Shown piece after piece: positions 5,201 through 11,672 of a stretch of 64,000 nt of DNA. Numbering within the stretch: position 1 is the first letter of the stretch; the number at the start of each line of letters is the position of its first letter. The DNA is from a virus (Duplodnaviria > Caudoviricetes), in the IMG/VR virus record IMGVR_UViG_3300025120_010521, one strand, 5' to 3'. Below the pieces are notes generated by a model. That model did no database searches, was not told where the DNA came from, and saw only the letters and a list, made by a program, of their open reading frames with translations. The translations under genes and the position numbers were made by a program.

Positions 5201-5789
5201 TCGCTTGTTCCTCCTTTTGGTCTTCTTCCCATTGCGCCAAGTTCTCTACACAACCCATGTAGTCATCTATCAACTTGCCATCTTCTGTTTGCCAAAACTC
5301 TGAGTCTGACTTTGGTGCATCTTCGCTACACATATAACAACGGTCATCCATGTCTTCCCAAACTCCCATAAAGTCACAGCCCGGTTCATAGTAGACAGCA
5401 CGGATTGACATATCATCATTGTTGGATATGTAATGTTCGTACGCACCGATCGGTGGGGCCCATGCAGTATCAAAACCAAACACCACTCGCTTGTCACCAT
5501 CGTCTTTGCCAAACAGCTCTTCTTGTTCTTGTATAGATCCATCATAGATGTCACAATCCCATTTGGTAGACCAATTGCTTGTTCTCCAATCGTACCAATT
5601 GTTGTGTCCATCCACTACAGGTTGTTTCTTCATCACTTCATCGTCCGAAGTGCTTTGAGTATCTTCTAGCTCTTTAGGCATAGGGTAAAGTGTATTGATG
5701 AACTCTCCCTTCTTTGCACCAGCTATTAACTTGTCGACCTTTGCTTTGGGTCCTACTATTTCTATATTGTTGTTGCACCAGTTCGGCAT
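5193..5789 (-). CDS. DUF1281/YubB-like ferredoxin-fold protein
   Basis: MPNWCNN, WYDWRxxNWxTKWD, FDTAWAPP, YYEPGCDFMG motifs. Confidence 0.75.
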   Translation of the reverse strand: MPNWCNNNIEIVGPKAKVDKLIAGAKKGEFINTLYPMPKELEDTQSTSDDEVMKKQPVVDGHNNWYDWRTSNWSTKWDCDIYDGSIQEQEELFGKDDGDKRVVFGFDTAWAPPIGAYEHYISNNDDMSIRAVYYEPGCDFMGVWEDMDDRCYMCSEDAPKSDSEFWQTEDGKLIDDYMGCVENLAQWEEDQKEEQANG

Positions 5790-5890
5790 ATCTGCTCCTT
5801 TATAATTGTTTATATATTTAATATAGCATAGGATCCTATTATGTCAACCTCTTTTTGCAAATAAATGCTGAGGTTTTAATAGGGAGCGAA

Positions 5891-5914
5891 GGTGCGTTGT
5901 TTTAACGCACCCCC
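5891..5914. repeat. Hairpin at the left edge of the GR-free tract
   Basis: GGTGCGTT-gtttt-AACGCACC; core GTTGTTTTAACGCA matches 7925-7938 at 13 of 14 positions. Confidence 0.7.
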
Positions 5915-5924
5915 ATGCACATGC

Positions 5925-6353
5925 TTATGCAACTAATTTTCTATGTTTGTCTTTGCAGTATACATCCAAACTTAAATAGTCCTCACCCTGCATACCCTGT
6001 TCGCTACCACCAGCTTCCAATAGCTTGTTTGTGCGTGTGTGTATTCTCTCGTTTATTGCGTCATTTAATGCGCCAGTATATGCAAGTCCACTGCCTTTTA
6101 CATAATCCAAATGTACAGTGCCTTCCCATATACTAATCTCATTGTCCCCATACTCGTCACTACAGTCAATTGCTGTCTCTAACGTTAGCTCGTCATTTGT
6201 TACAGCACAGTCACCCCAATAGCCTGCTTCGTAGTTGCCAGCAAAGCCACCTCCTAAGTTAACACTTATGTAATAAATTTCTCTGTCATCCTCAGCGTCA
6301 GTTGTTACTGTTACGTGCTGTAGTGCTTGTAGTTGTTTTACTAATGTGTGCAT
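5925..6353 (-). CDS. Acidic, proline-free early protein (GR-free cassette gene 3)
   Basis: ORF track; GGAAGGAAC RBS and promoter; coding strand has no TC or CC dinucleotide. Confidence 0.8.
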   Translation of the reverse strand: MHTLVKQLQALQHVTVTTDAEDDREIYYISVNLGGGFAGNYEAGYWGDCAVTNDELTLETAIDCSDEYGDNEISIWEGTVHLDYVKGSGLAYTGALNDAINERIHTRTNKLLEAGGSEQGMQGEDYLSLDVYCKDKHRKLVA

Positions 6354-6412
6354 GTTTGTTCCTTCCTTTGTTATATTATTAATGTAGCATACTTGTGCAT
6401 TTTGTCAAGTGT

Positions 6413-6868
6413 TTATTTAAGTTTTTTAATAATGTCCTCCATGTCATCGTTGTTGTACTTGCCACACTTTGTACAAGCAACATCGCCGTCGCAGTTCTCT
6501 GTTACAACTTCGCAAGTCCAATCAAAGTCCCCTTCCACTCTGTTGTTAATACAATCTAAACCATCCATACCATCGTATACAAAATGTTCTTCCAACAGTT
6601 CCTTAACTTGTTCTAACGTTGTTGCTTCTCTTATCTCAGCAACAGCATCTGCAACGTACTCTTCTTGTTTATCCACAAAGTCTGCATAGTCTCTTTCGTC
6701 TATGTGTTTCTCACCGCAGTGTTTACATTTCCAATCACTACATTCGTACACGCCATCCACTATGTCTTTAATTCGCTGTGCACCTTGTTTGCTTGTGCTT
6801 ACTGTAATCGTTTCTTTGTTGCCTAAAAAATATTCTTCGCCGTCTTTGTAACTTTCCCATTTTTGCAT
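6413..6868 (-). CDS. Acidic, proline-free protein with CxxC pairs (GR-free cassette gene 2)
   Basis: CKHC and CTKC motifs; AAAGGGAC RBS; no TC or CC on the coding strand. Confidence 0.8.
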   Translation of the reverse strand: MQKWESYKDGEEYFLGNKETITVSTSKQGAQRIKDIVDGVYECSDWKCKHCGEKHIDERDYADFVDKQEEYVADAVAEIREATTLEQVKELLEEHFVYDGMDGLDCINNRVEGDFDWTCEVVTENCDGDVACTKCGKYNNDDMEDIIKKLK

Positions 6869-6883
6869 GTGTTTGTCCCTTTG

Positions 6884-7060
6884 TTATATTATAAATGTAT
6901 TGTTTTTGTATTGTGCAAACATACTTTTTATGTGCTGTTGCTTTGTTGTGTAACACATACGTGTGTCTGCTTGTAAACGCACAATTGTTTTTTCAAGTTG
7001 TGCGTAAGTTTTTATAGGCAGTTTGTAGTATACGGGTTTTGCTGTTTTACTGTTGTACAT
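6884..7060 (-). CDS. Small basic protein, 58 aa (GR-free cassette gene 1)
   Basis: Manual translation MYNSKTAKPVYYKLPIKTYAQLEKTIVRLQADTRMCYTTKQQHIKSMFAQYKNNTFII*; AAAGGAAC RBS; promoter at 7093-7120. Confidence 0.7.
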   Translation of the reverse strand: MYNSKTAKPVYYKLPIKTYAQLEKTIVRLQADTRMCYTTKQQHIKSMFAQYKNNTFII

Positions 7061-7135
7061 TATTGTTGTTCCTTTGCTTTTGTTATATTATTAATATAGC
7101 ACAATTGTGCATATTGTAAAGAGGGTAAATGCATA

Positions 7136-7169
7136 GGGGACAGTGTAATGTTGTCCCCAACATTACACT
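7136..7169. repeat. Overlapping alternative inverted repeats between back-to-back promoters
   Basis: Perfect 12-bp AGTGTAATGTTG-tccc-CAACATTACACT (7142-7169), overlapping GGGGACA...TGTCCCC (7136-7158). Confidence 0.8.
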
Positions 7170-7196
7170 TGACAGTTTGCAAAAAGATGTTATACT
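7169..7196 (+). promoter_or_regulatory. Rightward sigma70-like promoter, antisense to 7195..7545
   Basis: TTGACA-N16-TATACT with extended TG. Confidence 0.6.
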
Positions 7197-7545
7197 ACGC
7201 GGCTTTTGGAAACTCTATCTTGGTTGGTTCCCAGTAGATGCCATCATCGGAATAATGCCATTCACCCTTCATGTGTATAAACAGACCCTCAAGGTCCTCT
7301 GTGTTCTTTACACCACTTAGGCGTGTGCATAAAGGATCTCCCAAACCATCAACATGTCCGTGATCTTTTAGGTTCCACTGTGCCAGGTGTACAAAGTACT
7401 TGGCAGTTTCTAGAGTTGGTGCAACCTCTTCTAGTTGACGTGCTAGTTCCTCAGCAGTTTTCTTTTGGTACAGCGTAGAGGTAACGTCATATTCGCTGTA
7501 AGCCACTCTAAAGTTTTTTATTTGCATGTGTGCTCCTTTGTTCAT
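7195..7545 (-). CDS. Hypothetical early protein (likely start MQIKN at 7527)
   Basis: ORF track; AAAGGAGC RBS; promoter at 7552-7579. Confidence 0.7.
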   Translation of the reverse strand: MNKGAHMQIKNFRVAYSEYDVTSTLYQKKTAEELARQLEEVAPTLETAKYFVHLAQWNLKDHGHVDGLGDPLCTRLSGVKNTEDLEGLFIHMKGEWHYSDDGIYWEPTKIEFPKAA

Positions 7546-7615
7546 ATGTTTATAGTAGCACCATTACGCAATGTGTCAAGCCCCTAATTGGCCAAAAAGA
7601 TTTAAATTATTCTGG

Positions 7616-7643
7616 TTGACACAATAGGAACCTATGTTATTAT
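7616..7643 (+). promoter_or_regulatory. Rightward early-type promoter firing into non-coding DNA
   Basis: GGTTGACA-N16-TATTAT; no convincing downstream ORF. Confidence 0.7.
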
Positions 7644-8087
7644 TAATAATAAGATAAGGGAACAGAAACTTTATCCGCCGGTTGTAATTAACTAGAACCA
7701 AATAAATCTAGAAAGATAAAATCGATACTCAAAGGATGGGCCGAACTCTGACCTAAATACCATGGCACATTATATAGTCCCCCATCGACTATATCTAGTG
7801 AACCACAACAGCAGTTAGTCTGTTCTTCACGGTTAAACCATTGAAATTATTAGTCTTTTTATCTACTAGATGTTGTGTCGTGCTGTATCGATATGGCACA
7901 CACTGTAGTACCATTAAGTAGGGTGTTGTTTTTACGCAACACCCCCTCGATCTCTCATGTGCTGTTTGTTGTTTTTGTGCAACACTTTTAGACTAGTTGT
8001 TGCATTTCTGCAACACCTCTCAAAATCCTTAAATTCTGAGCTAGGTCCCGAGTCTCTGGAACCTATTCTAAACTCTCCGTTCGCCAC

Positions 8088-8201
8088 CTTTGAACCTCTT
8101 TGAAGTCCCAATGAACCCCTTGAAGCCTTTGAGCCCCATTGACGTCTCATTGATGCATTGAAGTCATTGAAGCCCTACAGTGTCTTTGAACCCTTTGAAC
8201 C
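8088..8201. repeat. Degenerate tandem repeats of about 10-nt period (TTTGAAc/gCC-like), iteron-like
   Basis: TGA cores at 8091, 8101, 8112, 8121, 8130, 8140, 8151, 8159, 8168, 8187, 8196. Confidence 0.7.
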
Positions 8202-8358
8202 GATCGTACTCCAGAGAACTTAATCTCAGACTCTCGGGGCTCTATACGGAGTGTTCCCAAATATGCAACTGATCGCACACCGATGTTCTGGGTACTTGGT
8301 TGTTTACGTGCAGTGATCGATGCCCGCCGTAAAGGCCACCCATGTATTGTTATTTACT

Positions 8359-8389
8359 AGTATATACTCATATAGGCCAACTGTCAACC
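8359..8389 (-). promoter_or_regulatory. Leftward early-type promoter firing into non-coding DNA
   Basis: GGTTGACA (-35 at 8382-8387)-N17-TATACT on the minus strand. Confidence 0.6.
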
Positions 8390-8539
8390 CCAAAGAGGCC
8401 TCTACTACATATAGTGATGGCCACAGCACTGCCCATGAGGCATAGACCGCATGCTCAAGACTAGATATAGTGGTGGCCAAATTAAATGGGGTCATTTAAT
8501 CATGACTACATGTTGTGGTGGCCTCAAACCCCGTATAAG

Positions 8540-8582
8540 CTACAGCGGGGTCCCAGGTATAGCCAACCCCTACAGCGGGGTC
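8540..8582. repeat. 13-bp direct repeat CTACAGCGGGGTC, two copies 30 bp apart
   Basis: 8540-8552 and 8570-8582; partial third copy TACAGCG at 8591. Confidence 0.8.
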
Positions 8583-9099
8583 ATAGTGGTTACAGCGTAT
8601 ATAGTGAGTATAGGGGCAATTGATCAGGGGCCCAATCGTATGTGCTACGCCGTGCGTATGAGTTTACGATACGCACAAGAGCACATATGAAGCCGGAGGC
8701 TAGATCAGAATGATCTATTTCAGACAGCAACAGCTGATTGCCCCACTATCAGGAAGCGATGATCAATGGTGGTTACACGGTTGATAATGGTTAAGAGGCC
8801 ATGGTTATAGCGTAGGTAAATTGGTTTTATCGTCTTCAGATACGGGTAATGAGAGACACGGTTTTACCTTTTGGGTAGGAACTTTCTATCCACATTGTGT
8901 ATACAAAAACAGACTAATCTGTGTAGTGTTTATACCCCAAAATCGCTTCGTACGGTACCTGTAAAATAGCTTTCTTTTTAGTTCATACTGAAAGGATATA
9001 TGCACAATCCACATTGCTTCACTGTGTGTCATGCATTAATGCTGTGTTACAGTCACTCTAGACTAATAGTGTAGTGATCAAGTGTGTGTATGTGTGCTA

Positions 9100-9288
9100 C
9101 TAGCTTATGCCAAATGGGTTATGCTGTGCTTCGTACTGTTCTTTTGTGATATCGTCTATTACTATACAGTCGTAATCTTCACCTAGTAGTTCGTCGAATC
9201 GTTCTTGTATCAGCTTCTTTGTTGAGTATGCACAGAATTCTTCTAATACGATATTGCCTTTGTATGCGTATACGAAACAGTAGTGCAT
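9100..9288 (-). CDS. Small hypothetical protein
   Basis: ORF track; TAATG coupling with the upstream ORF. Confidence 0.6.
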   Translation of the reverse strand: MHYCFVYAYKGNIVLEEFCAYSTKKLIQERFDELLGEDYDCIVIDDITKEQYEAQHNPFGIS

Positions 9289-9806
9289 TAGAACCTAACG
9301 TCCTTGAGATCATAGCCTGTGAATCTATGATATAATTCAGTGAATTTATCCTTGTTACCGAGACCTTGTTCTATCCAACAGCCTGCTAGTGTGGCCATTT
9401 TCCAAGGCTTGTTCACACTCATGCTGTGCTGTTCGAACCACTGTTCTATCTCAGGCATGTACTCCAACAGTGCCAAACCGTCATGTGGCTGTGTGCTGTA
9501 GAGTATACAAGCGGGTGCCCAATATACATCCTCGCAATAGTGTGTGTTGTGTATGTTACGCATCTGTGTGTGGGTTTTCATTGTTGTGGTACTGCGATAT
9601 TTGTTGGTATGATAGCGACTCCAATCAACTGCTTCTATGCTGTGTGTGGCTACGTTTGCCCATGCACAACCTTGATACAGCAGATTCTTATAGTACTGTG
9701 TGATGTTTTGTTCGTAGTAGCTGACGTATCGACTGTAGCTGGGCTCTAGGTCCATTTCCAATTGATTTAATTGTTCAAGTGTGTGATCTATTTGATCTCT
9801 ATACAT
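9288..9806 (-). CDS. Hypothetical protein
   Basis: ORF track; overlaps the nitroreductase 3' end. Confidence 0.55.
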   Translation of the reverse strand: MYRDQIDHTLEQLNQLEMDLEPSYSRYVSYYEQNITQYYKNLLYQGCAWANVATHSIEAVDWSRYHTNKYRSTTTMKTHTQMRNIHNTHYCEDVYWAPACILYSTQPHDGLALLEYMPEIEQWFEQHSMSVNKPWKMATLAGCWIEQGLGNKDKFTELYHRFTGYDLKDVRF

Positions 9807-10558
9807 TTAATGTCGCGATTTTCTTTGGAAAATGATGGGAATTTAATTTCTTTGGGTAGGTAGTGTATGTTACCTTGGTTGTCTTCTGCGGATATCTGTT
9901 TTATATCCACTATTTTACCCGGATTGTCTGTCCATGCTCCAGTGGCTTGTCCTATCAATACTTCATGTTGATCTGACTGTGTGTGTTCTAGATCCTGCTG
10001 TGGATATCCAATGCCTATGCCATATTCCAGTGCTTTCGTACCATCATTTACGCCATCCAATATGTTCAAACGTTTCCACCAATATTCCTTGTCTGGAGGT
10101 GAACTCATGTTCTTGTTGAAGCCTGTTGCATAGCCCATTTCCGCGGCCGAACGTGCAATCAAGCCCATTGCCAGTCCAATTGAAGCCAAACAGTTATCAC
10201 GTCTGCCCTGATATTCTTCTGAACGACCTTCGCCATCTACTTCATAGTTACGCATTGTATCTGGATACTTGCTTACAAAACACATGTAAAAATTAGCACC
10301 CATTTGTGGATTTCTCCAACAGCTAGGTGGTGTTGTTGTGGCTGTAAAACCCCATGTGTATTCTAGCATTTCTTTGATTACTTCAGCTTTGCGAATAAAA
10401 TAAACATCATAATATGCTTCATGTTGTTTGCTTGGGGCATTTTGAGCTATCCATAACCAGTGATCAATATGCTCTTGAGGTATGGATTTTGTTAGGTCCC
10501 AATTGCGTTGGCACTTTTTAATAGTATTAATATACTCTTTTTCTTTATCCATACTCAT
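9788..10558 (-). CDS. Nitroreductase-family flavoprotein
   Basis: IKKCQRNW (R-x-S-x-R equivalent), AQNAPSKQ, and ASIGLAMGLIARSAAEMGYATGF helix. Confidence 0.8.
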   Translation of the reverse strand: MSMDKEKEYINTIKKCQRNWDLTKSIPQEHIDHWLWIAQNAPSKQHEAYYDVYFIRKAEVIKEMLEYTWGFTATTTPPSCWRNPQMGANFYMCFVSKYPDTMRNYEVDGEGRSEEYQGRRDNCLASIGLAMGLIARSAAEMGYATGFNKNMSSPPDKEYWWKRLNILDGVNDGTKALEYGIGIGYPQQDLEHTQSDQHEVLIGQATGAWTDNPGKIVDIKQISAEDNQGNIHYLPKEIKFPSFSKENRDIKCIEIK

Positions 10559-10571: not shown

Positions 10572-11672
10572 TTACCTTTTAATTATGCTTTTTATATCAG
10601 GATTATGTGCTGTGGAACATTTTTCATTACAGGTTATATAGGATCTATTGTTCCATGCTGACTGTAGCTGAGAAAAATACTTTGAATTTAATATATCTGT
10701 TATTGAATCTTGTGAATAAATTGAATGAATTTCTGGATCAAGTCCTTGTGAAAATGATGAAGCACCTTCTTTGAGGCTACGATCAGTCCCCATCCAACAG
10801 CAAGGAGTAATAAATCCATGTGCTGTGATAAAAAGACTTCGTTTAATTATGCTATTTTTTTCTAAAGCCTTGCAAAAAATGGTATCTTTTTTTACTGTTG
10901 CTGTGGTTTTGGGCATAGAAAATGGTGGTATTTTTTTATTAATTGGTGTATTTTTTATTTGATTGCTAGTATCATGCTGTATATATTTTTTCTTTGGGCT
11001 TTTATCAATTTTAATCTGTGGATTTTTTCTGTTGCTGTTGATTATTTTAATAGAATTAAATCCCCAGGCTTTATAATTGGATTCAATTTCATTTAATTGA
11101 TGTTCATTATGATCAAATACAATAATTTGCCATGTTGAATTACCACCTGCTTGATTATATGCTGTATAATTCTCTTTTAATTTATTCCAATTAACACCTT
11201 TGCGATAGATATGATTTGTATCTTCTAGGCCATCTATACCCCATACAACTCTTAAATCAATATTTTTTTGTTTTAATTGATTGCTTTTTTCTCCTAATTG
11301 TTTCCACCATTCTCTATCTCTAGTACCACCGTTGGTAGCAATACTAATAGACTTTGCTTGTGGTAGATATTCTACAGTATAATCAATAAATTGCATAATT
11401 TTTGGATGTACAGTTGGTTCGTCATAGTTTCCACAATAGTGTATTTCACGTAGACTTTCCCATTTATCATTTGTAATCATTTTTTTGTATCTGTCTATAT
11501 TTAAATGTGTTGAATTTATGCTGACTGGGTATGGTGATTCTTGTTTGTATCCTTTAAGCCAATCTGAATTTAAATAGTTTACTCTTGCACAATGAGGACA
11601 ACCAGCATTACAATAATTTGTAAGCTCTATTTGTAAACGTGTAATTTGATCTGTTTTAAGTGCCCAAGACAT
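10572..11672 (-). CDS. Radical SAM protein with C-terminal SPASM/twitch domain
   Basis: ELTNYCNAGCPHC (CxxxCxxC), GNYDEP, ATNGG, GIDG; C-terminal GFITPCCW...CNEKC. Confidence 0.9.
   Translation of the reverse strand: MSWALKTDQITRLQIELTNYCNAGCPHCARVNYLNSDWLKGYKQESPYPVSINSTHLNIDRYKKMITNDKWESLREIHYCGNYDEPTVHPKIMQFIDYTVEYLPQAKSISIATNGGTRDREWWKQLGEKSNQLKQKNIDLRVVWGIDGLEDTNHIYRKGVNWNKLKENYTAYNQAGGNSTWQIIVFDHNEHQLNEIESNYKAWGFNSIKIINSNRKNPQIKIDKSPKKKYIQHDTSNQIKNTPINKKIPPFSMPKTTATVKKDTIFCKALEKNSIIKRSLFITAHGFITPCCWMGTDRSLKEGASSFSQGLDPEIHSIYSQDSITDILNSKYFSQLQSAWNNRSYITCNEKCSTAHNPDIKSIIKR

Follow-up and report, generated by a model that had tools for sequence, protein, structure and literature searches.

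Which function is served by the long stretch without recognizable genes at positions 7546-9099 of a 64,000-nt DNA segment (the window, i.e., the whole stretch of DNA analyzed) belonging to the tailed-phage record IMGVR_UViG_3300025120_010521? An earlier note on this DNA had described convergent transcripts devoid of an open reading frame (ORF) at this locus and had proposed either a replication origin or the junction of the physical genome ends. Of this interpretation, the conserved, convergent and structured ORF-less transcripts were retained, whereas the origin or genome-end junction found no support in the tests that were run. Based on comparison with relatives, the region is likely to represent a conserved cluster of early non-coding RNA (ncRNA) genes rather than spacer DNA or hidden protein genes. 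With somewhat less assurance, an early ncRNA cluster including a multivalent decoy RNA is regarded as probable and as the best explanation of the locus. The locus itself is genuine, has not been described before and is under strong selection; it matches no described RNA family in Rfam.

Relatives were gathered via alignment of homologues of the 116-aa protein encoded next to the stretch, complemented by a motif scan. The alignment-based search yielded one IMG/VR locus and 56 metagenome loci (loci are designated by L numbers in the following), and the relatives originate from marine metagenomes and viromes (Tara, JGI and IMG/VR samples). DNA searches of a cultured-phage collection in near and distant mode gave no match, and nothing was found in IMG/VR when three flanking proteins were used singly as queries. 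The non-coding region was alignable in approximately 35 of the retrieved loci and from end to end in eight of them, where it shows 70-79% DNA identity while the neighboring protein is only 65-75% identical. In an alignment of 24 sequences, majority identity rises to 0.90-0.96 in many of the region's 40-nt windows, compared to 0.77-0.81 in flanking coding DNA, and invariant runs of 30-40 nt are interleaved with variable, indel-rich segments. An absence of conservation, named in the earlier note as an outcome that would speak against its proposal, was not encountered, since approximately 35 relatives keep the region more strongly than the flanking genes. Furthermore, profile searches recovered the same block order in the distant relatives L001/L045, L036/L037, L044 and L026, whose neighboring protein is 52-62% identical. 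In the complete IMG/VR relative G001 (328,149 bp), each motif of the cluster occurs as a single copy, at 126.8-128.2 kb.

It is highly improbable that unrecognized small protein genes or recoded genes occupy the region. Several ORFs of 40-79 aa exist in the window sequence, the longest within 7546-9099 comprising 79 aa, but none of them is kept in relatives: the three longest (79, 72 and 63 aa) are broken by stop codons or frame-shifting indels in seven of seven full-length relatives, and indels are not multiples of three. The substitution phase ratio amounts to 1.04-1.45 in the stretch versus approximately 2 in the flanking genes, three-nucleotide periodicity is absent, and reassignment of TGA, TAG or TAA as sense codons opens no long frame in the stretch. 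Screening of positions 6500-10500 with the Rfam 15 covariance models (E-values up to 1) returned only a chance microRNA match inside a neighboring gene, and the same models applied to the relatives L001, L059, L062 and L063 (E-values up to 0.1) returned only two tRNAs located elsewhere. ARAGORN detected neither a tRNA nor a tmRNA within the stretch.

The features predicted for the left and central parts of the cluster, comprising RNA-1 and RNA-2, are as follows:

7616-7643, plus strand: P1, the RNA-1 promoter, TTGACA-16-TATTAT, early sigma70 type
7652-7955, plus strand: RNA-1, approximately 300 nt, predicted 3′ end at the hairpin 7921-7946
7680-7684/7722-7726, 7692-7696/7707-7711 and hairpin 7765-7800, plus strand: covarying helices of RNA-1, as derived from relatives
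7921-7946, 7967-7985 and 7998-8016, strand unassigned: early terminator hairpins, three copies of TGTTGY-N6-RCAACA, as derived from the sequence and relatives
7915-8352, minus strand: RNA-2 as a whole, approximately 360-440 nt, ends predicted from promoter and hairpins
8087-8201, minus strand: array of 11 direct repeats within RNA-2, RNA unit UCAAAGRGSY
8195-8356, minus strand: structured 5′ domain of RNA-2, five helices with 28 pairs
8359-8387, minus strand: P2, the RNA-2 promoter, TTGACA-17-TATACT, early sigma70 type

The RNA reading is well supported for RNA-2 and moderately supported for RNA-1 and part of a third unit, RNA-3. RNA-2 was interpreted as a promoter-to-terminator unit because P2 is followed by a covarying domain, the array and then early terminator hairpins, the full order being 5′ domain, UCAAAG array, variable spacer and terminator hairpins. 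Within the 5′ domain (160 nt), compensatory changes were observed in 16 of the 28 pairs, and 98.4% of cells are paired. Its covariation score of 0.486 compares to 0.174 for shuffles (reached by none of 500) and to 0.04-0.08 with pairing partners slid. The covariance analysis across relatives that had been suggested earlier was thus carried out, and the helices of this domain covary strongly, with support equal to that of a curated family. Variable pairs comprise 37 G.U versus 2 A.C cells, a count biased by the prediction of the structure on that strand. A covariance model of the domain matched 24 close loci, while distant loci gave marginal matches (E-values of 0.04-0.1) at the expected position.

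Within the array, UCAA(A/U)G is invariant and present in 8-12 copies per relative in all clades, with a spacing of 9 or 10 nt in 136 of 175 intervals. The array is no more structured than shuffled sequence (z of -1.3). Its region features a GC content of 43-48%, with fractions of 0.29 for G and 0.17 for C in the RNA-2 sense, and the RNA-2 strand carries 11 YC dimers, namely exactly one UC per unit and none elsewhere.

In agreement with the earlier note, P1 and P2 face each other: a promoter scan gave 7616-7643 (plus strand) and 8387-8359 (minus strand) as the best sites of the area, each matching 11 of 12 positions. The -35 boxes of both promoters are invariant among the 24 aligned relatives, the -10 box of P2 reads TATAnT across relatives, and a P2-equivalent promoter occupies the matching place in the distant relatives L001, L036 and L044. 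P1 is a member of the window's approximately 14 early promoters (TTGACA N13-14 TGCTAYWWT) and is oriented the opposite way. The terminator hairpin occurs in one to four copies per relative. In most relatives, the copy at 7921-7946 shows an A-run on the plus side, corresponding to a U-run on the minus strand, and seven sequences have pairs in it that are possible only as G.U on the minus strand (A-C mismatch on the plus strand); these G.U pairs lie at the base of the hairpin. Since the conserved promoters face each other and the predicted structured products end at shared hairpins, the description of convergent ORF-less transcripts holds.

The TGTTGY-N6-RCAACA hairpin also ends an early gene at 5911-5891, just ahead of the early promoter 5847-5820. 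Moreover, modules composed of the hairpin and a TTGACA promoter are located between small early genes at 5780-5940, 6351-6418, 7066-7121 and 7601-7661; they are 80-90% alike and are also seen in relatives. Promoter-early stem-loop (PeSL) modules of T4-like phages were described previously (PMC2839356, PMC4122927), and the features defining them, i.e., a stem-loop terminator and a sigma70-type early promoter repeated between early genes (PMC4122927), are present here, the hairpins also bounding RNA-1 and RNA-2. In contrast to PeSLs, which flank small protein genes and mediate shuffling of those genes, the modules at this locus frame ncRNAs that are far more conserved than shuffled ORFs.

Regarding the function of these transcripts, the host-type early promoters P1 and P2 would drive RNA-1 and RNA-2 toward each other. 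RNA-2 may be a multivalent decoy that works as CsrB or CrcZ do: the folded 5′ domain would stabilize or target the RNA, and the tandem single-stranded UCAAAG units would titrate a sequence-specific single-strand binder early in infection. This binder could be an RNA-binding protein of the host or phage, or else a complementary RNA. The decoy role of RNA-2 specifically is put forward tentatively; it is favored because a folded domain is combined with many single-stranded copies of variable number and because the word is shared with the RNA-1 core. RNA-1 would engage the same partner as RNA-2, given that its invariant core holds one CUCAAAGG, a copy of that word in matching RNA sense. In addition, RNA-1 and RNA-3 may pair via UUAGUCUGUU/AACAGACUAA and AAUUAUUAGUCU/AGACUAAUAAUU; these two conserved complementarities of 9-12 nt originate from AGACTAA copies and correspond to inverted sites when read as DNA. 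The more elaborate proposal, an interacting set of three RNAs in which RNA-2, with its 8-12 UCAAAG sites, disables a host RNA-binding factor during the first minutes of infection, is considered doubtful.

Regulatory RNAs of bacteria provide the closest frame for such a decoy. CsrB/CsrC and RsmY/Z carry many GGA sites for CsrA, and CrcZ carries A-rich sites for Hfq/Crc. RNA-2 resembles this type in having tandem copies of a short single-stranded word beside a terminator, with varying copy number (8-12 here). It differs in the word itself (UCAAAG, not GGA or AANAANAA), in the unstructured run replacing hairpin loops, in the large covarying 5′ domain ahead of it and in stemming from the genome of a lytic giant phage. 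GOLLD and ROOL are likewise phage-associated ncRNAs with hundreds of conserved, structured nucleotides, whereas the present cluster has no Rfam match and comprises three separate units instead of one ornate RNA. Convergent transcripts are shared with ColE1 RNA II/RNA I; in contrast to that system, the predicted RNA-1 and RNA-2 overlap only at the terminator hairpins, without a long antisense stretch.

Several candidate partners of the array were discarded. Pairing of RNA-2 units with CAUUGAA of RNA-1 shows no covariation, and L001 has CUCAAAG units but CAUUGAU. Complementarity to the anticodon loop of the phage tRNA-Gln(UUG) was dismissed since this loop reads UUUUGGU, not CUUUGA. UCAAAG is no part of the phage's ribosome-binding sites, being found in 0 of 72 upstream regions. 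The composition of the early transcripts may offer a further indication of the target: the minus-strand early mRNA 5889-7121 contains 4 YC dimers in 1233 nt versus approximately 73 expected from composition, and RNA-1, RNA-2 and RNA-3 are not YC-depleted. Because the mRNAs are nearly YC-free and the array holds one UC per unit, the target of the decoy could be a YC-reading factor that early mRNAs evade.

A number of observations weigh against the cluster-and-decoy interpretation. We know of no binder of UCAAAG. Every transcript end was deduced from sequence, and RNA-1 as well as RNA-3 are mostly invariant, so that most of their predicted pairs are uncheckable by covariation. The complementarities between RNA-1 and RNA-3 and between RNA-1 and RNA-2 are likewise invariant or non-covarying. 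For the segment 8755-9075 of RNA-3, covariation is only marginally above controls, and the promoter scan and hairpins disclosed no convincing promoter or terminator for this RNA. The repeats of the region are as DNA-like as RNA-like (units every 9-10 bp, ACAGCGGGGTC recurring at exactly 21 bp in three distant relatives, and the 12-bp palindromic M with conserved spacing). Two known types of protein ligand were also rejected. A CsrA sponge does not fit, as inspection gave approximately one GGA per array locus and the units are not located in hairpins. A ligand of the Rho primary site would be expected to be unstructured with C exceeding G and YC dimers separated by 9-13-nt linkers (PMC6144790); the RNA-2 array features linkers of 7-8 nt and more G (0.29) than C (0.17). 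A Rho decoy is accordingly only a long shot. On the plus strand, the array contains more C than G and 19 YC per 100 nt, and this YC-rich tract could halt P1 read-through.

RNA-1 was interpreted as a small RNA (sRNA) gene in its own right because its core stands alone in other marine phages. The invariant core, AUCGAUACUCAAAGGNUGGGCCGAACUCUGACC (7721-7753), comprises 32 nt. Its element ACUCAAAGGNUGGGCCGAACUCUGACC recurs in six further contigs, five from IMG/VR and one binned to a Porticoccaceae metagenome-assembled genome (MAG). In these loci (L059, L062-L064, L065) the core has its own TTGACA/TATAAT promoter and belongs to a unit of 150-200 nt ending before the next promoter, without the array, RNA-2 or RNA-3. 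The folding motifs noticed earlier, ATATAGTC (7772-7779)/GACTATAT (7787-7794), GTGAA/TTCAC and AACAG/CTGTT, are present at the places claimed, and the hairpin containing ATATAGTC/GACTATAT covaries (ATATAG/CTATAT to ATCTAG/CTAGAT). After addition of distant relatives, pairing is kept in two further helices (CGGUU/GAUCG to CAGUC/GACUG; CUAGA/UCUAG to CCAGC/GCUGG or CUAGA/UUUAG). L001, L036 and L026 lack the 5′ GAACAGA together with its partner UCUGUUC. Folding energy alone gives no clear strand for RNA-1 or for 8395-8760.

In three distant relatives, five or six repeats of approximately 13 nt, AATGTGTTSMAA, are located between RNA-1 and the terminator hairpins (L001, reverse complement, 10700-10800; L036, 8130-8200; L044, 9310-9380); this array is absent from the window's clade. 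The phage-like contig of the Porticoccaceae MAG (L065; PBJN01000001.1) shows a short RNA-1 followed by the gene of a 77-aa basic protein and then by repeated AGTGAAGCAC words. Its binning represents a weak hint to the host.

The right part of the cluster contains RNA-3 and further repeats:

8404-8523, plus strand: three M units (starting at 8404, 8460 and 8505), each an imperfect 12-bp palindrome ACTAsATnTAGT followed by GGTGGCC, as derived from the sequence
8443-8471, plus strand: sole promoter-like site for RNA-3, TAGACC-17-TATAGT, 9 of 12 matches, overlapping the second M unit (M2); a weak prediction
8478-9075, plus strand: RNA-3, extent uncertain, with invariant blocks of up to approximately 40 nt
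8542-8582, plus strand: ACAGCGGGGTC twice at a 30-nt spacing, plus a degenerate third copy at 8592
8970-8994, minus strand: hairpin CUUUC/GAAAG followed by CUAUUUUAC (U-run), overlapping the RNA-3 region

The block at approximately 8400-9075 is the best conserved of all and opens with the three M units, the two ACAGCGGGGTC copies and several small hairpins. In the nested hairpin 8639-8688, the inner helix covaries (GUGCGUAU/AUACGCAC to GUGCUAAU/AUUAGCAC), and the covariation score of 8612-8760 is 0.112 versus 0.047 for shuffles and at most 0.024 with partners slid. For RNA-3 the plus strand is favored: 8755-9075 folds with -86.6 kcal/mol on the plus strand versus -68.5 kcal/mol on the minus strand, and the stem of the hairpin 8896-8926 (loop AACAGACUAAUC) pairs only via plus-strand G.U in four relatives. 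The promoter-like site, together with the M2 unit and including the spacing, is duplicated in some relatives. The minus-strand hairpin at 8970-8994 may be a candidate terminator of the incoming minus-strand operon (11672 to 9100), as suggested by its sequence.

Two further M copies are located inside RNA-1 (7788-7799 and 7865-7876). The M-unit spacings of 55-56 and 44-45 are kept across clades, and the palindrome is perfect (ACTAGATCTAGT) in L001. ACAGCGGGGTC is present in 3-4 copies at a spacing of 21-22 nt in the distant relatives L001, L036 and L044, compared to 30 nt in the window's clade, and AGACTAA is found in two copies per orientation. Both the palindromic M units and the ACAGCGGGGTC repeats probably serve as protein-binding sites through which the cluster is regulated. 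M as a general promoter type was rejected since it is confined to this region, and GTGGTGGCC as a Chi-like site was rejected since the distant clade has GTCCCGG instead.

These repeats raise the question whether the locus is a protein-binding hub at the DNA level, e.g., a centromere of the ParR-parC or omega type, a pac site of a small terminase or a multi-operator switch, with transcripts that are incidental or merely regulatory. Tandem units of 9-10 bp in 8-12 copies recall arrays bound by ribbon-helix-helix proteins, and the array units recur approximately once per helical turn, but the spacing alternates between 9 and 10 instead of being fixed. The M palindromes would suit dimeric DNA binders, one of them overlapping a -10-like box, and GGCC is enriched (8 copies in 480 nt at 8330-8810, mostly RGGCCA, versus 64 across the 64-kb window). 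However, double-stranded DNA sites cannot account for the strong strand-specific RNA covariation, no par, terminase or repressor gene is recognizable nearby, and partition is of no obvious use to a lytic T4-type phage. A DNA hub is therefore regarded as improbable.

A transcription-primed origin of the T4 oriE or ColE1 type is a serious, if unlikely, rival to the ncRNA cluster. Under this reading, the early transcript from P2 (or P1) would cross initiator-bound iterons, form an R-loop and prime the leading strand; the 5′ domain would be akin to RNA II in its folded pre-primer form and would be regulated by the convergent RNA. Early-mode promoters running into evenly spaced direct repeats were reported for T4 oriE, whose 12-nt repeats have no defined role (PMC3016281). 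The locus shows the same combination, P2 being followed by 8-12 units at 9-10 nt, which is a resemblance only. Likeness to oriE further includes the T4-type phage and the position in a strand-change zone. Differences were noted as well: oriE itself lies within gene 5 and not in non-coding DNA, with small rep genes on the opposite strand, whereas here 1.5 kb of non-coding DNA carries three structured RNAs and the units comprise 9-10 nt, not 12. No rep gene was recognized near the cluster in family and fold scans, RepE homologues not having been specifically searched.

The three repeat classes have DNA-like geometry (9-10-bp units in 8-12 copies, ACAGCGGGGTC recurring at 21 bp three or four times, and 12-bp palindromes at constant distances), the locus is present once per genome in a zone of changing gene orientation, the array part of RNA-2 is rich in G, which would favor an RNA-DNA hybrid, and four CGATC sites are invariant; all of these features would suit an origin. 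On the other hand, the array region with its raised GC content is embedded in a genome of 32% GC, and neither an adjacent A+T-rich unwinding element nor a DnaA box was found in the region, so the origin proposed in the earlier note gained no support from composition. The GC-skew check on the complete genome G001 was uninformative: the skew merely tracks gene orientation and shows no inflection at the locus. No recognizable initiator gene is adjacent, the 116-aa neighbor being without family or fold match. Furthermore, the RNA-1 core is a stand-alone sRNA in phages lacking the array, and invariant blocks of 30-40 nt together with compensated helices exceed the needs of known T4 origins.

Comparison with T4 oriF and oriG led to a similar picture. 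Likeness consists in a promoter-driven transcript proposed as primer; early-type promoters, GC-richer downstream DNA and conserved structured RNA distinguish the present locus. A MotA-dependent middle-mode promoter characterizes oriF/oriG, and R-loop formation at oriF is sequence-independent (PMC3016281). P1 and P2 possess a full TTGACA, and no TGCTT resembling a MotA box was found at -30 of either promoter. The second oriF/oriG feature, concerning downstream DNA, was not found either, with a GC content of 0.43-0.52 over 7900-8699 versus approximately 0.32 for the genome. The AT-richest 40-mers (80% AT) correspond to the P1 promoter and the first RNA-1 hairpin. Iteron origins served as another standard, featuring iterons of 17-22 bp, an AT-rich flank, DnaA boxes and a cis-encoded initiator. 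ACAGCGGGGTC is present in 3-4 copies at 21-22 bp in L001, L036 and L044, but only in two copies at 30 bp in the window's clade, and the last three features were not found.

The second proposal of the earlier note, that the physical genome ends meet here beside the first-entering genes, is scarcely credible, as is a packaging start at this place. Many short metagenome contigs break within 8468-8942, and the region lies within a block of early genes. However, the breaks are scattered, the loci were chosen for their neighboring gene, and variation in M-unit copy number explains the breaks; eight contigs read through the entire region. In G001 (328 kb), the locus is internal, lying at 127 kb and away from the contig ends, and the contig-end repeat of this genome is a short assembly overlap.

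As to the significance of the ncRNA cluster, the described ncRNAs of lytic phages are, to our knowledge, few, and next to none are from the uncultured T4-like giants abundant in the sea. The three RNAs merit covariance models, as phage annotation leaves the region blank. A decoy role would make RNA-2 one of the rare phage RNAs that titrate a host factor, UCAAAG could then be used as a bait word, and a decoy for a host factor would constitute a new anti-host strategy that is RNA-borne rather than protein-borne. Should the locus instead serve as an origin, no earlier one would have been defined for these phages, and the puzzling repeats of T4 oriE would gain a counterpart in non-coding DNA.

The genomic context comprises two features at the left edge of the stretch:

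7195-7545, minus strand: gene of the 116-aa protein, probable true start at Met7 (7527), with AAAGGAG upstream
7552-7579, minus strand: promoter of this gene, TTGACA-16-TACTAT, TG-extended, early type

The window has a GC content of approximately 32% and carries seven tRNAs and many radical-SAM genes. The claim that 7546-9099 is its largest gene-free stretch was borne out, the other big gaps of the window being filled by small serial ORFs or tRNAs. The left edge at 7546 required correction: because the 116-aa gene probably starts at its second Met (7527) and has its own promoter at 7579-7552, the stretch is better given as approximately 7580-9099. Its higher GC content was likewise reproduced (0.34-0.52 in 200-nt windows versus approximately 0.29-0.35 over most of the window), with a peak at 8500-8699; the immediate neighbors are also raised (0.38-0.45). 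The 116-aa protein is conserved (GDPLCT...WHYSDDGIYWEP) and adjoins the cluster in every case. No Pfam or PHROG family and no Protein Data Bank (PDB) fold were matched by this protein (AlphaFold2 model with a predicted local distance difference test score of 75.8).

In L008 and L009, an insertion of approximately 190 nt is located between the promoter of the 116-aa gene and P1. It is flanked by a duplicated TGTCAACC promoter box and resembles a cassette that was inserted at a promoter module. Furthermore, G001 harbors a second ORF-free stretch of 1.2 kb at 138,941-140,176, approximately 11 kb from the cluster.

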